DNA from: Escherichia virus TH22
Reading direction: 5' to 3' (one strand)
Sequence record: MT446396.1
DNA length: 64,000 nucleotides
Position 1 is the first letter of the stretch. Every line of letters begins with the position of its first letter. A model generated the notes under the pieces. The model searched no databases. It was given only the letters and a program-made list of their open reading frames with translations, and was not told where the DNA came from. Below, one piece after another: positions 24,791-44,648 of this stretch. A program made the translations under genes and the position numbers.

Positions 24791-25123
24791 ATGAACATCA
24801 AAACTTACAACGAGTTTTTAGCCGAATCCGCCATCAATGAGACCAAATCAATTGATGATAGTGAAGGCTCTCTGAAATTTGGTTTAACCAAAAATGCAGA
24901 TGGTGTTTTCTTTCAGATTGGTAATGAACGTTTTCAAACGTCCAAATATTCCAAAGCTGCAGTTGAAGCTGTCCTGAAATCTGGTGGCAAGTGGAAAGGC
25001 AAAGAAGGTACTAAAGAAATTGGTATCGCTGTTGACGGTGGTATGGCTTATTTTAAAATTGGCGATGAACAATTTATTATGTCTGCTCGCGGACGTAAAG
25101 AACTGGCAAAACTTTATAAATAA
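24791..25123 (+). CDS. Internal protein (IP)-like, CTS variant MNIKTYNEFLAE
   Basis: N-terminus resembles the T4 capsid targeting sequence (MKTYQEFIAE) with a (L/I)xE protease site; first of five tandem genes; start chosen at internal Met of track ORF. Confidence 0.65.
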   Translation: MNIKTYNEFLAESAINETKSIDDSEGSLKFGLTKNADGVFFQIGNERFQTSKYSKAAVEAVLKSGGKWKGKEGTKEIGIAVDGGMAYFKIGDEQFIMSARGRKELAKLYK

Positions 25124-25131
25124 GGTTTCTT

Positions 25132-25404
25132 ATGAAAACTTTCAATGAATTTTTCAACGAGTCCCAACTGAATGAAGAAGTAAAAATTAGTAAAGCAGTC
25201 AAAGCTATGATTGACAATATCAATCACCTGTATAGCATTGACTTGACTGACCATATAACAATTGGTAACAAACGCAACTTTTTCGCGTTTGACATTTCAG
25301 AACTTGACCAGAACCAAATTAATAACATTGAGCGTTTTGCCAATGACAAGGGTCTCCGCCATGAGACAGCTGGTTATAAAAAATACGCAATTTATCTAAA
25401 ATAG
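25132..25404 (+). CDS. Internal protein-like, CTS variant MKTFNEFFNES
   Basis: CTS-like N-terminus; 8-nt spacer with RBS after previous gene. Confidence 0.6.
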   Translation: MKTFNEFFNESQLNEEVKISKAVKAMIDNINHLYSIDLTDHITIGNKRNFFAFDISELDQNQINNIERFANDKGLRHETAGYKKYAIYLK

Positions 25405-25412
25405 GATTTCAA

Positions 25413-25712
25413 ATGCAAACGCTCCATGAATTTTTGGTAGAAAACAATTATCTGGCAGAAGCAAAAACCTGGCCTCTGGGCCTTCAGAAGAAAAACACCT
25501 ACAAATGGGTTGACTTCAAAGGTAAAGGCGACGCTGAAGACTTTGACCAGCTGTGTAAAAATGGTTATACCTTCCTTGACTCTAACTATAATAAAATTAC
25601 CTCATTTAGTCAGAAATCCAGCATTGCATATATTGAAACTGGTAAGAACACCCCTAAGAACATCACTGACGACTTCGCAGCTTATGGCGTGATTCGCGGT
25701 TCAAAAATGTAA
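25413..25712 (+). CDS. Internal protein-like, divergent CTS (MQTLHEFLVENNYLAE)
   Basis: Weaker CTS match but same tandem context and spacing. Confidence 0.5.
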   Translation: MQTLHEFLVENNYLAEAKTWPLGLQKKNTYKWVDFKGKGDAEDFDQLCKNGYTFLDSNYNKITSFSQKSSIAYIETGKNTPKNITDDFAAYGVIRGSKM

Positions 25713-25766
25713 TGTACATGATGGGATAACTGCAGTATAATTATCCCATCAACTACTGGAGACAAC
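25712..25766 (+). promoter_or_regulatory. Early promoter cassette (PeSL-like)
   Basis: TGTACA -35, TATAAT -10 within inverted repeat GGGATAA...TTATCCC, conserved leader CATCAACTACTGGAGACAAC then ATG. Confidence 0.7.
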
Positions 25767-26009
25767 ATGAAAACTTATCAAACATTTATAACAGAATCTT
25801 CCCATGGTATGGAAGTTAAACTTGGTCAAGCCCTTGCTGAAGCAGAGCGCCTGTTTGCACGTATCAAAGAACTTGCTGATTCTGTAGATGCATCATCTTT
25901 TAAAGGCGACCAGGGTAAAGTTAAAGCTCTCCTTGCTCTTTGTTCTGATGCAGGCGAAATTGCTAAGAATGGTACCAAGATGAAAAAACGCCTAGAAGAC
26001 TTAAAATAA
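25767..26009 (+). CDS. Internal protein-like, CTS MKTYQTFITES
   Basis: Near-exact CTS; 80 aa; own promoter cassette. Confidence 0.75.
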   Translation: MKTYQTFITESSHGMEVKLGQALAEAERLFARIKELADSVDASSFKGDQGKVKALLALCSDAGEIAKNGTKMKKRLEDLK

Positions 26010-26064
26010 GTATACATGATGGGATAACTGCAGTATAATTATCCCATCAACTACTGGAGACAAC
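26010..26064 (+). promoter_or_regulatory. Early promoter cassette, exact duplicate of 25716-25766
   Basis: Identical sequence ACATGATGGGATAACTGCAGTATAATTATCCCATCAACTACTGGAGACAAC. Confidence 0.7.
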
Positions 26065-26298
26065 ATGAAAACTTATCAAGAATTTATTAATGAAACTGCT
26101 GATGTTAAAGTGCAATTCATTTACACCGGCAAGAAAGATAAAATGGGCGAAATGCCTTATGGAACTCTCCGCGACGCCTTAGATAATTACGGTCAGCTCG
26201 GCGGTGAAGAGTTTGGGGACTATTTTGTTATCCAGGGTCCGGCAGAAGTTATCGAGAAATGGGCTAACAAGTATAAATCAATTTTCCGTAAAAAATAA
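26065..26298 (+). CDS. Internal protein-like, CTS MKTYQEFINET
   Basis: CTS nearly identical to T4 IP consensus; 77 aa. Confidence 0.75.
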   Translation: MKTYQEFINETADVKVQFIYTGKKDKMGEMPYGTLRDALDNYGQLGGEEFGDYFVIQGPAEVIEKWANKYKSIFRKK

Positions 26299-26357
26299 GT
26301 GTACTTTTAGATATGGGATAGTGTATAATTATCCCATCAACTACTGAGGAGAATAAA
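26299..26357 (+). promoter_or_regulatory. Early promoter cassette (PeSL-like)
   Basis: GTGTAC -35, TATAAT -10 within GGGATAG...TATCCC inverted repeat, leader CATCAACTACTGAGGAGAATAAA. Confidence 0.7.
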
Positions 26358-26543
26358 ATGAAACGTTGCGAATTAATTAGAAATGTTACTGCCCTTGTTG
26401 CTGTTACCGCTTTTGGTTTTAGCATGTTTGCTGGCTTTATGTTGAATATGCTTTCAACTTCTGAGAATATAATCTCTTTAGTAGTTGCATTCTTAATTGG
26501 TTCAATCTCTTTCGTTATGGATAAAATCTCTAAAGGTGAATAA
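26358..26543 (+). CDS. Small hydrophobic membrane protein
   Basis: 61 aa, two hydrophobic segments; directly after a promoter cassette. Confidence 0.6.
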   Translation: MKRCELIRNVTALVAVTAFGFSMFAGFMLNMLSTSENIISLVVAFLIGSISFVMDKISKGE

Positions 26544-26950
26544 TGAACGTTGAATATTATGTATATGCAGATTATGAAAATAATCCGTCTAAAGATGAAG
26601 ATAATCGTTTAGGTGTAGATGCTTTCGATTCCCCTGCTGCCGCGTGGCAATGGGTTGAAAGAACCGATATTCCTTACCGTTATATTGAAGTGGTCGACCA
26701 CGCAGGAAACAAGTATCCTAAGGAAGCATATGTTCCTTCTGGGAAGGTGAATTTCCTTCTGTTTGCAGGTGATAACTATTATCCACGCGGTGGGTATACC
26801 GATTTAATCGCTAAAGCATTTTCTGAAGATGAACTGCGTGAAATTATAGAACAGAACAGTAGAAAACCGATGTATGGTTCTGACCGTTTTGACTGGTGGC
26901 AAATTGTTAATGCCAATACCCATACTGTTGTTGATGAGGGTTGTTTATGA
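26543..26950 (+). CDS. Hypothetical protein
   Basis: 135-aa ORF, start overlaps previous stop (TAATG); no recognisable motif. Confidence 0.55.
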   Translation: MNVEYYVYADYENNPSKDEDNRLGVDAFDSPAAAWQWVERTDIPYRYIEVVDHAGNKYPKEAYVPSGKVNFLLFAGDNYYPRGGYTDLIAKAFSEDELREIIEQNSRKPMYGSDRFDWWQIVNANTHTVVDEGCL

Positions 26951-27423
26951 ATATTAAATTTGGACAGACTATCCCTAAAGGTTATGTTGTTGAAATTGAA
27001 ACCTGGGAAAATGACGGTGATAACTATAAAACCCAGACAATATTTGGTGTAGAAGAACAAGAAATCCAACAGTACAAATATATCCTAGAACTTTTCCATG
27101 GTTCGCATTGCAACAACCCGGATAAATGTGGTAATTCAGAATGGGACGTAGTTAAAGACTTTATTATCGCACACATTGAATCTGGTGTAAAATCTGGCCA
27201 ATTAACTCCTGAATTCATTAACAAAACACTTTGTATTGAAAATCTGGAAAACCTGGTTGAAGGTGGCAATGGCCAGGAATTTGAATTATTGTGTTCTCTC
27301 CAGGAATTGCTGGGCGAGCCGGTGGAATATGATAGCGTTTTGCGCGTAGTTTCGTGGGTAAAATTATACATCATCGAAGAAGAAATCCAAATACCAAACG
27401 TTAAAGCACTTGATATGCTTTAA
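26947..27423 (+). CDS. Hypothetical protein
   Basis: ATG at 26947 overlaps previous stop (ATGA); track ORF start at 26941 is a non-ATG codon. Confidence 0.55.
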   Translation: MNIKFGQTIPKGYVVEIETWENDGDNYKTQTIFGVEEQEIQQYKYILELFHGSHCNNPDKCGNSEWDVVKDFIIAHIESGVKSGQLTPEFINKTLCIENLENLVEGGNGQEFELLCSLQELLGEPVEYDSVLRVVSWVKLYIIEEEIQIPNVKALDML

Positions 27424-27501
27424 TAAAAACGCGTTATTATTAATAAGTACCCTCTATTACCAAAGGTTCTTCCCTCAAAGAGCCTTTCATAATAGAATTA
27501 A

Positions 27502-37290: not shown

Positions 37291-37316
37291 TAAATACCCC
37301 TATATAAGGGGGTATT

Positions 37317-37808
37317 ATGAATATATTCGAAATGTTACGCATAGATGAAGGTTGTAAGTTGGATTTGTACCGTGACACCGAAGGCTTTTGGACCATCGGC
37401 ATCGGTCAATTGATAACTAAGAACCCATCGAAAGACGTTGCTCGCGCTGAGCTGGACAAATTAATGGGTCGTGTTTGCAACGGTAGGATTACCCAGATTG
37501 AAGCTGAAACCTTGTTTAACCGTTCAGTGGAAAAAGCTAAAGCCGGAATCTTGAAACATCCTGTCTTAAAACCTGTTTATGATGTACTGGATGAAGTTCG
37601 TCGTTGCGCACTCATTAATATGGTATTCCAAATGGGTGTAGCTGGTGTAGCTGGTTTTCCTAAGGGGCTGCGATTGCTCAAGGCTAAATCATGGGAAGCT
37701 GCTGCTAAGGAACTGGCTGACTCAAGATGGTATAAAGTCCAGACTCCGAACCGGGCCAAACGAGTTATTGAAACTTTCCGTACTGGAACTTTTGACGCAT
37801 ACAAATGA
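37317..37808 (+). CDS. e: Endolysin (T4 lysozyme e)
   Basis: [12 protein letters not shown]...[14 protein letters not shown]...[19 protein letters not shown] matches T4 lysozyme over its length (163 vs 164 aa). Confidence 0.95.
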
Positions 37809-37864
37809 GTTTACATCTCCAAACGATAGGGTTATAATGACCCTATCAACTACGGAGAACAAAC
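37809..37864 (+). promoter_or_regulatory. Early promoter cassette
   Basis: GTTTAC -35; TATAAT -10 in loop of inverted repeat GATAGGG...CCCTATC. Confidence 0.7.
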
Positions 37865-38281
37865 ATGACTCGCATTAATTTAACCCTGGTATCTGAACTT
37901 GCTGACCAACACCTTATGGCTGAATACCGTGAGCTTCCTCGCGTGTTTGGTGCTGTTCGTAAGCATGTGCAAAATGGTAAAAAGGTGTCTGACTTTAAAA
38001 TCCCATCATCTTTTCTTTTAGGAACTGGTCATGTCACCTTCTTTTATGATAAGCTTTTGTTCCTTAAAAACCGTCATCAAGAACTTATTGCTGAATGTTT
38101 AAAGCGAGGGTTTAATATAAAAGATATTTCTACCCAAGATTTAAATGATATTCCTGATGAATGGAAGAATGATTATCAACCATCAATCTGGTCAATTGAA
38201 ATCAGTCAATCCAGACTGAATGAGAAAATTTCTCAAAAGCCTACCTGGTACAAATACTATGGGAAAGCTGTGTACGCTTAA
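37865..38281 (+). CDS. denV: Endonuclease V (pyrimidine-dimer DNA glycosylase)
   Basis: [35 protein letters not shown]...[13 protein letters not shown] matches T4 DenV (138 aa). Confidence 0.95.
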
Positions 38282-38329
38282 CTAAAAAGGTTGTATAATG
38301 ATTTTATCAACCAAACAATGGAATATAAA
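38270..38329 (+). promoter_or_regulatory. Early promoter cassette overlapping denV stop
   Basis: GTGTAC -35 within last denV codons, TATAAT -10 inside GGTTG...CAACC inverted repeat. Confidence 0.6.
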
Positions 38330-38644
38330 ATGAAAACTTATCAAGAATTTATTACTGAATCTACTCAACAACGTGTTGAAGGTGGTTATGTCTGGATTGA
38401 ACAGTTAACCCCACCAAGTGAAACAAGCACTGGTTCGTGGAAAATTACTGTTGATGGTCCTGGTGGAAAACGCAAGACTATTAAAGAAATTAAAGGTTAT
38501 TATGACGAAGCTAAATCATGGGCTGGTAGTCATGTAATGCAGATTAAAATTGCAAACCCAGATAACGTTCATGCGGCAAAAGCGTTCCGTCGCATTGGTA
38601 ATAAACTTTATGATGCGTTTTTGCGCGATTTCCCTAAAGCTTAA
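38330..38644 (+). CDS. Internal protein-like, CTS MKTYQEFITES
   Basis: Start at internal Met of track ORF; CTS identical to the 38658 protein; position matches T4 ipII/ipIII beside denV/e. Confidence 0.7.
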   Translation: MKTYQEFITESTQQRVEGGYVWIEQLTPPSETSTGSWKITVDGPGGKRKTIKEIKGYYDEAKSWAGSHVMQIKIANPDNVHAAKAFRRIGNKLYDAFLRDFPKA

Positions 38645-38657
38645 CTAAAGAGCCATT

Positions 38658-38921
38658 ATGAAAACTTATCAAGAATTTATTACTGAATCCGCTAAAGCTC
38701 CTGCTGGTTCCTTTAAAGTCCGCGCCTTCGCTGGTGATGCTGAAGACTTTGGTACCATGAAGCGCAATGGTTATTCTTTCTTTGGCGGCGATGGCAAAGA
38801 AATTGTTACCTATGCAAAACGCCGCGAAATCGCATTTGTGGTTGCTGGTAAGAAAGTTGATGTTGACGATATTGAATGGGACTTTGAGACCTTTGGTATT
38901 GTTTCTGGCGGTAAAGCGTAA
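38658..38921 (+). CDS. Internal protein-like, CTS MKTYQEFITES
   Basis: 87 aa; first 32 nt of coding sequence identical to 38330 gene. Confidence 0.7.
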   Translation: MKTYQEFITESAKAPAGSFKVRAFAGDAEDFGTMKRNGYSFFGGDGKEIVTYAKRREIAFVVAGKKVDVDDIEWDFETFGIVSGGKA

Positions 38922-39063
38922 TAATTAAATGGGAATAACCTGGACCTCAATCCTGAGGGACTCCCGCCAACCTGTAATAAGGTCGAGCCCGCGGCGGTAA
39001 TGGGTAATACAGGAAGGGATGAATTAATGTGCCAAGGAACGGCCCCACAACTAAGAGACAACT

Positions 39064-39591
39064 ATGAAATTTTTAACTCCAATTTATCTAACCTTAATGC
39101 ACGCCTTCGCTGAACGCGCCATTGAACGCTTAGATTCAGACCAATACACCTGGTATGAACCTACTTCAAGAATGCAAGAGTTTGGTACTCTTAGACTTGA
39201 TGGTGGAAGACAAACAGGTAAAACAAGTGCCATTGCACAGTTCGCCGCAGATTGGGTTTCTAAGGGTAATGATGTGATTGTTATGTCGAGTTCTTCGCAT
39301 CGCTCACGAGAAATCTGTGATATAATAAAGCGGGTTTCTAAAGCACAACCACATCTTAATGTTGAACGACCTGGTTTTGTTGTATATGATACCGTTCGTT
39401 CATTTTTAGACGAAGATAATTTCCATAAGTATCGTGGGTTATCTGTTACTCGATTATTGATTATTATCGAAGAGCCTATTCGCCTTCCAGCGATGGATAA
39501 GTTCTATGAAGCTTACCAGGTAATGCTGAATAAATTTATGTGTCAAGGTTCTAAACCTCTGCCGTTATTCTTTGTGATAGGAATGCAATAA
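39064..39591 (+). CDS. P-loop NTPase-like protein
   Basis: Walker A-like GGRQTGKTS and hydrophobic strand then acidic residue (LLIIIEE). Confidence 0.6.
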   Translation: MKFLTPIYLTLMHAFAERAIERLDSDQYTWYEPTSRMQEFGTLRLDGGRQTGKTSAIAQFAADWVSKGNDVIVMSSSSHRSREICDIIKRVSKAQPHLNVERPGFVVYDTVRSFLDEDNFHKYRGLSVTRLLIIIEEPIRLPAMDKFYEAYQVMLNKFMCQGSKPLPLFFVIGMQ

Positions 39592-44589: not shown

Positions 44590-44648
44590 GGTTTACATCC
44601 TCATCAAAAGGGTGTACTATTATCCCATCAACTACTGAGGAGAATACA
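44590..44648 (+). promoter_or_regulatory. Early promoter cassette
   Basis: GTTTAC -35, TACTAT -10, leader TATCCCATCAACTACTGAGGAGAATACAA. Confidence 0.65.

Follow-up and report, generated by a model that had tools for sequence, protein, structure and literature searches.

T-even phages carry two highly variable loci for internal proteins (IPs), both associated with PeSL-like elements. The known IP variants number more than 30, and a mechanism for their shuffling has been proposed, as summarised in PMC2839356 and PMC4122927, which cite Repoila et al. 1994 and come from the same laboratory. A signal-sequence-based identification of many ip genes is mentioned in PMC12373910 with reference to the same work of 1994. 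The first ten residues of IPIII suffice for targeting proteins into the T4 head. Within this capsid targeting sequence (CTS), residues 4 and 7 are important in targeting, and processing by gp21, the prohead protease, involves residues 8 and 10 (PMC9026906). T4 injects the non-homologous inhibitors Ip1, Ip2 and Ip3, and the GmrSD type IV restriction enzyme that is blocked is a different one for each (PMC12373910; PMC3012670).

Here, we describe the e-denV-vs.8 region, which forms one of these two polymorphic loci, in a stretch of 64,000 nt from Escherichia virus TH22 (MT446396.1). This whole stretch is called the window and all coordinates are window positions unless another record is named. 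At the denV locus, identity is 99.9% with Escherichia phage UPEC01 and 93-97% with VR7, SP18 and other Gaprivervirus members, and the phage is a Gaprivervirus of the VR7/SP18 group. The locus contains two genes, A and B, encoding IP-A and IP-B. In our reading, to which we assign a probability of roughly 85%, A and B are T4-type IP cassettes whose leader repeats recombine and whose mature proteins are packed and injected, likely as anti-nuclease factors. In this sense they are already catalogued IP genes in a well-known hypervariable locus, which is ordinary for T4-like phages. Because VR7 already has annotated genes for identical versions of both proteins, the window adds nothing to the IP catalogue. 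The contribution made here is the mapping of cassette junctions to the leader, at the level of single bases, across modern Gaprivervirus genomes.

Two genes with a common leader between denV and vs.8

The locus is composed of the following features:

37317-37808, + strand: e (lysozyme), left anchor (open reading frame; endolysin/e annotation in UPEC01 and VR7)
37809-37864, + strand: slot alpha, between e and denV, empty in the window, a 56-nt spacer (promoter scan, cassettes of relatives)
37810-37838, + strand: early-type promoter TTTACA-17-TATAAT within slot alpha (promoter scan, 11/12)
37865-38281, + strand: denV, endonuclease V (open reading frame, annotation)
38330-38644, + strand: gene A, encoding IP-A of the Ip10 family, 104 aa (phrog_3966, identity to VR7 ip10)
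38330-38361, + strand: leader (CTS) coding repeat, copy 1, left breakpoint (32-nt identity, ends of blastn homology)
38658-38921, + strand: gene B, encoding IP-B of the RB69-ORF125c/VR7-ORF127c family, 87 aa (phrog_2667, identity to VR7 ORF127c)
38658-38689, + strand: leader (CTS) coding repeat, copy 2, left breakpoint (32-nt identity, ends of blastn homology)
38926-39048, + strand: putatively structured non-coding element, right homology boundary of the cassette array (conservation, covariation)
39064-39591, + strand: vs.8 homologue, right anchor (open reading frame; vs.8 annotation in VR7)

Gene B and the vs.8 homologue are separated by 142 nt of non-coding DNA. A Walker-A-like motif, GGRQTGKTS, is present in the vs.8 homologue, whose matches to P-loop NTPase families are weak and below threshold (AAA_14, E 0.015; Terminase_6N, E 0.058).

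The genes at 38330 and 38658 start with an identical MKTYQEFITES, as stated in a preliminary description of this DNA and confirmed from the open reading frames. At the nucleotide level, a string of 32 nt, ATGAAAACTTATCAAGAATTTATTACTGAATC, is exact at both positions and is found with two mismatches at 26065, as had also been described. Both of these mismatches change an amino acid, so that all synonymous sites agree across the three leaders. None of 100 shuffles matched the 32-nt string. Given the codon usage of the window itself, the probability that two genes encoding the same peptide pick identical 10 codons is ~0.002, and that of three genes sharing identical 9 codons is ~7e-5. Thus, shuffles and codon statistics indicate that the identity of the leaders exceeds chance.

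The encoded peptide represents a T4-type CTS in both proteins. MKTYQEFITE fits the pattern MKTYQEFIxE, and the corresponding sequence of T4 IPII and IPIII is MKTYQEFIAE. The motif I/L-x-E for cleavage by gp21 is present at residues 8-10 of both IP-A and IP-B, in the form I8-T9-E10 followed by Ser. The designation of A and B as CTS-bearing genes in the preliminary description was correct.

Leaders of tandem neighbours are identical at 30/30 positions, which applies to A and B in the window, to ipIII and ipII in T4, and to the A, B and ip7 cassettes in CJ20. In contrast, leaders from the other cassette slot of the same genome or from other genera share only 20-26/30 positions, the differences residing at synonymous sites (ACT/ACA/ACG/ACC; ATT/ATC). 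Identity in tandem together with synonymous divergence elsewhere is the pattern expected from recombination or gene conversion acting between leaders and is at odds with selection favouring a given mRNA sequence. The leaders of JS09 are not homogenised (20-26/30), showing that concerted evolution of leaders is not universal.

Cassette slots and junctions among relatives

Comparison of 16 loci revealed two cassette slots, alpha between e and denV and beta between denV and vs.8. T4 uses slot alpha only, with the order nudE-e-ipIII-ipII-denV-vs.8 in the direction of transcription, whereas the window uses slot beta only (nudE-e-denV-A-B-vs.8). Both slots are filled in CJ20, P896, MN01, DK-13, VR25, JS09 and CC31. 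The slot alpha cassette of CJ20, P896, MN01, DK-13 and VR25 has its breakpoints relative to the window at 37825|37854. With two alternative slots available, the order found in the window is normal for relatives outside Tequatrovirus and reflects no genome-specific rearrangement. The gene order had been highlighted in the preliminary description as different from T4; it truly differs but is no peculiarity of this genome, being standard in Gaprivervirus, Mosigvirus and Karamvirus.

JS09 has a composite arrangement, in which a full denV, a truncated B-type gene, Ip10, IPII, a second denV fragment (N-terminal 46 residues) and the conserved element are found. This layout looks like the scar of a recombination between a T4-type (ipII-denV) and an RB69-type (denV-IP) layout.

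The cassette comparison comprised 12 close Gaprivervirus relatives with flanks of 88-99% identity, and slot beta held one to three cassettes (7, ip7):

A-B: window, UPEC01
A-B-7: VR7, VR25, TH54, CJ20
A-7: VR26, TH40
B: EAWsc9
B-7: P896, ECML-359
7 alone: MN01, DK-13

In EAWsc9, P896, ECML-359, MN01 and DK-13, blastn homology to the window ends at 38359-38362, the end of the first leader, and in TH40 and VR26 it ends at 38702, 13 nt past the second leader. The left breakpoint is thus located at, or at most 13 nt after, the end of a leader in 7/7 genomes differing on the left side. One upstream flank (gattttatcaaccaaacaatggaatataaa) together with the leader is joined to three payloads across phages, namely A, B or Ip7. 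Moreover, hybrid junctions are present. Ip7 of VR26 starts with MKTYQEFITESAKVPKAF, in which Ip7 sequence follows a B-type start, and EAWsc9 carries B with the Ip7-type leader codons ATC ACA GAA GCC. The different junction codons indicate at least 4-5 independent events, and since the compared genomes share ancestry, the seven breakpoints probably amount to only about this number. On the right side, genomes containing ip7 diverge from the window between 38921 and 38967, and the breakpoint at 38967 lies just ahead of the invariant core of the conserved element, which begins at 38970.

Consistent with the earlier proposal that the leader could act as a portable homology block, the leader coincides with recombination junctions between close relatives. 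The proposal is right in substance but not new, as IP polymorphism and shuffling have been described from 1994 onward.

Alternatively, the identity of the leaders might result from selection on the mRNA, be it for translation initiation or for codon preference, and the cassette differences might have arisen by unrelated illegitimate events. Most leader codons are preferred ones (AAA 0.73, TAT 0.75, GAA 0.80), and the start regions of highly expressed genes are often constrained. However, ACT is used twice in the leader and is not the dominant codon (0.35). Furthermore, synonymous differences between genera and between slots, yet identity inside tandem arrays, are not what such selection predicts, and the breakpoints and hybrid junctions fall on the leader itself. 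We consider this explanation unlikely and favour recombination between the leader repeats of IP cassettes.

The first internal protein locus and the element upstream of vs.8

The other IP locus of the window lies on the 57B to tRNA side. The preliminary description had listed the gene at 26065 and missed those at 25132, 25413 and 25767, and probably one at 24791:

25132-26298, + strand: other IP locus, 57B to tRNA side
24791-25123, + strand: probable further leader-type gene, degraded leader MNIKTYNEFLAE
25132-25404, + strand: Ip9-like gene, leader MKTFNEFFNE
25413-25712, + strand: paralogue of the IP-B gene, leader MQTLHEFLVE
25767-26009, + strand: Ip5-like gene, leader MKTYQTFITE
26065-26298, + strand: Ip6-like gene

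Some leaders of this locus (24791, 25132, 25413 and 25767) are degraded. The product of the gene at 25413 shares 31% identity with IP-B (E 1e-14) and is a diverged paralogue, and the gene at 25767 encodes a product with 50% identity to ip5 of VR25, a slot alpha gene. Judged by these similarities, payload families are shared by the two IP loci. UPEC01 covers only 71% of the first locus (91.6% identity), and VR25 is the closest relative there (25000-27500 vs 37300-39100 for the two loci). Since identity to UPEC01 reaches 99.9% at the denV locus, the two IP loci exchange independently. By sequence comparison, the genome is a mosaic at its IP loci.

A 22-nt repeat, GTATAATTATCCCATCAACTAC, is perfect at 25735, 26033 and 26323 and occurs with 1-2 mismatches at 44614 and 58598. 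It consists of a -10 box and the 3' arm of a stem-loop, located ~10 nt upstream of small genes, and represents a PeSL-like promoter/stem-loop cassette. It precedes the IP genes at 25767 and 26065 as well as a non-IP membrane-protein gene at 26358, and in relatives a near-identical copy lies ahead of ip7 in slot beta. Upstream of 38330 and 38658 the repeat is absent, which sets A and B apart from PeSL-type cassettes, and the upstream regions of A and B are unrelated to each other. PeSL cassettes are similar in that short repeats flank small non-essential genes and provide recombination points in hyperplastic regions (PMC2839356, PMC4122927). They differ in that the block shared by A and B is the coding leader itself.

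The conserved element at 38926-39048 comprises two predicted stems, P1 (38931-34/38962-65) and P2 (38945-49/38954-58), and an invariant core of ~40 nt from 38970 (ACCTGTAATAAGGTCGAG...CGGTAA.GGG). A pseudoknot is proposed between 38939-42 and 39010-13. The core does not vary among T4, Mosigvirus, CC31, S16 and Klebsiella T4-like phages. The rV5-like phages carry the element by their tRNA cluster, a Vibrio phage and metagenomic viral contigs contain it too, and ~1000 phage records match it. A search of Rfam at E values up to 1 gave no match to the element. ARAGORN finds no tRNA there. A coding function was rejected, as the T4 frame hits a stop in the window, indels are not multiples of three and frames are not conserved. 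A role as a cis-acting leader of vs.8 is weakened by phage Murica, in which the downstream gene is unrelated to vs.8.

Single-sequence predictions did not distinguish the element from shuffles. The minimum free energy of the whole element was no better (z +0.94), and the pseudoknot did not stand out significantly either (combined p 0.41). RNAalifold applied to a MAFFT alignment of all types returned almost no structure, probably as a result of register shifts. What points to a structure is positional covariation. In a MAFFT-only alignment of one subtype, covariation of the outer stem plus pseudoknot was 0.242, compared with 0.060 for shuffles and <=0.053 for slid controls, and at the pairs 21-117 and 22-116 both partners vary while pairing is always kept. 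When 28 sequences from all subtypes were aligned with a covariance model, which yields an alignment fitted to the model and hence biased towards it, the outer stem and the inner hairpin were supported (92.5% of cells paired, 10 pairs double-changed, score 0.45 vs 0.16). The element may represent an undescribed structured RNA.

In T4, the element is located at 64819-64938, and its core falls within the annotated N-terminus of vs.8. T4 vs.8 (NC_000866, 64253-64912) is annotated with 219 aa, compared with 175 aa in the window. The extra N-terminal codons traverse the conserved element, and the corresponding frame is closed in the window. The start codon of T4 vs.8 has probably been placed too far upstream.

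Protein families, proposed mechanism and implications

In PHROGs, IP-A matches phrog_3966, which is annotated as unknown function (E 1.8e-32, residues 1-103), and IP-B matches phrog_2667, 'internal head protein' (E 9e-21, residues 1-85). According to tblastn, mature IP-A is 100% identical to VR7 ip10 and mature IP-B to VR7 ORF127c; IP-A is 99% identical to SP18 Ip10. In the annotation of VR7, gene A is ip10, 'similar to RB69 ORF124c and phage Pol Ip10', and gene B is VR7ORF127c, 'similar to RB69 ORF125c'. Ip10 of phage Pol, VR7 and SP18 and RB69 ORF124c are direct orthologues of gene A, and VR7 ORF127c and RB69 ORF125c are direct orthologues of gene B, all in the same slot after denV. Apart from a third cassette (ip7) in VR7, nothing substantive distinguishes VR7 from the window. 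Homologues of A and B are present in Mosigvirus, Karamvirus and Gelderlandvirus with 45-78% identity (tblastn), the Mosigvirus and Gelderlandvirus versions being at about 72-78%.

The AlphaFold (AF2) model of IP-B is confident and shows a small alpha/beta domain (pLDDT 85), for which a search retrieved no significant structural neighbours, and the model of IP-A was unusable (pLDDT 47, alignment of 3 sequences). The alignments are shallow, since a large protein database gave just 2 and 5 clusters. None of the three IP proteins matched a Pfam family. Sequence searches of the PDB returned chance HLA matches for IP-A (E >0.1) and none for IP-B. The GmrSD inhibitors IPI*, Ip2 and Ip3 have no sequence or fold similarity to IP-A or IP-B, and homology does not assign the two proteins to that group.

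By analogy with T4, we propose that the CTS MKTYQEFITE directs the products of A and B into the prohead core and that gp21 removes the leader after I/L-x-E, i.e. after Glu10. The predicted mature proteins, IP-A with 94 aa and IP-B with 77 aa, would be packed with the DNA, injected, and most likely neutralise a host nuclease attacking modified phage DNA. IPI*, Ip2 and Ip3 of T4 are alike in presumed action, being small, leader-targeted, injected and present as several non-homologous proteins per phage. They are characterised GmrSD inhibitors, whereas the Ip10 and ORF125c families are likened to them in mode by analogy. An anti-restriction role would accordingly be one by analogy, given that neither protein resembles IPI*, Ip2, Ip3 or solved structures.

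At the DNA level, the ~30-nt leader coding sequence is a direct repeat heading every cassette. Homologous recombination between these repeats could delete, duplicate or exchange payloads and would keep neighbouring leaders identical, and recombination on the right-hand side may use the conserved element upstream of vs.8. Homologous recombination in T4 requires roughly 50 bp for full efficiency, and 30 nt are short for efficient exchange.

One might also regard the leader-like N-termini as relics, with one or both proteins remaining unpackaged and acting inside the infected cell. IP-B is near-neutral (pI 6.2 after predicted cleavage), in contrast to the basic T4 IPII and IPIII and to mature IP-A (pI 9.6), degraded leaders such as MQTLHEFLVEN and MKTYQTFITE exist in the first locus, and our literature search did not find a virion proteomics paper on VR7 or Gaprivervirus. 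On the other hand, the leaders of A and B are intact at the positions for targeting (4 and 7) and processing (8 and 10) (PMC9026906), and both are conserved across genera. This makes loss of packaging improbable, and packaging of both mature proteins remains the preferred reading.

The relationship to T4 ipII and ipIII is confined to the leader and its surroundings. T4 IPII and IPIII share with IP-A and IP-B the 10-residue CTS type, the I-x-E motif, the neighbourhood and identical tandem leaders. In contrast, the T4 genes are placed in slot alpha and A and B in slot beta, and the mature sequences are unrelated. Even in a five-sequence database, blastp gave E values >0.1 throughout: the best values of mature IP-A were 1.5-1.6 with T4 IPII and 1.3 with T4 IPIII, and those of mature IP-B were 75 and 0.15, respectively. 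Similarity between mature IP-A and mature IP-B was not detectable by blastp either. The divergence of the mature sequences from IPII and IPIII had been recognised in the preliminary description, but its statement that the locus matches T4 ipII/ipIII does not hold. Ordinary ipII/ipIII orthologues in conserved order were looked for, and members of other named IP families, Ip10 and ORF125c, were found instead. A true IPII orthologue, almost identical to T4 IPII, is encoded by the relatives CJ20, P896, MN01 and JS09, and in CJ20, P896 and MN01 it is housed in the e|denV slot. As Ip10 and/or ORF125c types sit together with IPII in CJ20, P896 and JS09, they are not the IPII family.

The notion that A and B are drifted ordinary orthologues of T4 ipII and ipIII in a locus merely rearranged by a move of denV, which could appeal to the shared e, denV and vs.8 neighbourhood, the shared leader and the similar sizes, is highly improbable and at the level of sequence already refuted by the lack of detectable similarity of the mature regions, the co-occurrence of near-identical IPII with Ip10 and/or ORF125c types in relatives, the different PHROG assignments, and the occupation of the denV|vs.8 slot in several genera.

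Beyond the reading of A and B as recombining IP cassettes, it is conceivable, though we regard this as speculative, that the leader has been selected as a dedicated recombination anchor in addition to its role as a targeting peptide. IP arrays would then be a homology-driven 'integron' that operates without an integrase, and Ip10- and ORF125c-type proteins would inhibit defences other than those blocked by Ip1-3. If true, IP arrays would constitute an 'integron'-like store of injected anti-defence effectors, and the targets of Ip10 and ORF125c-type proteins would be defences beyond the GmrSD variants blocked by T4 Ip1-3.

The gain or loss of cassettes at the leader in Gapriverviruses supports the 30-year-old shuffling hypothesis. 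The leader junctions also point to an easy route for engineering the exchange of payloads. The repertoire of IPs, as injected counter-defence factors, helps to decide which wild E. coli strains can be infected by a therapeutic T4-like phage.
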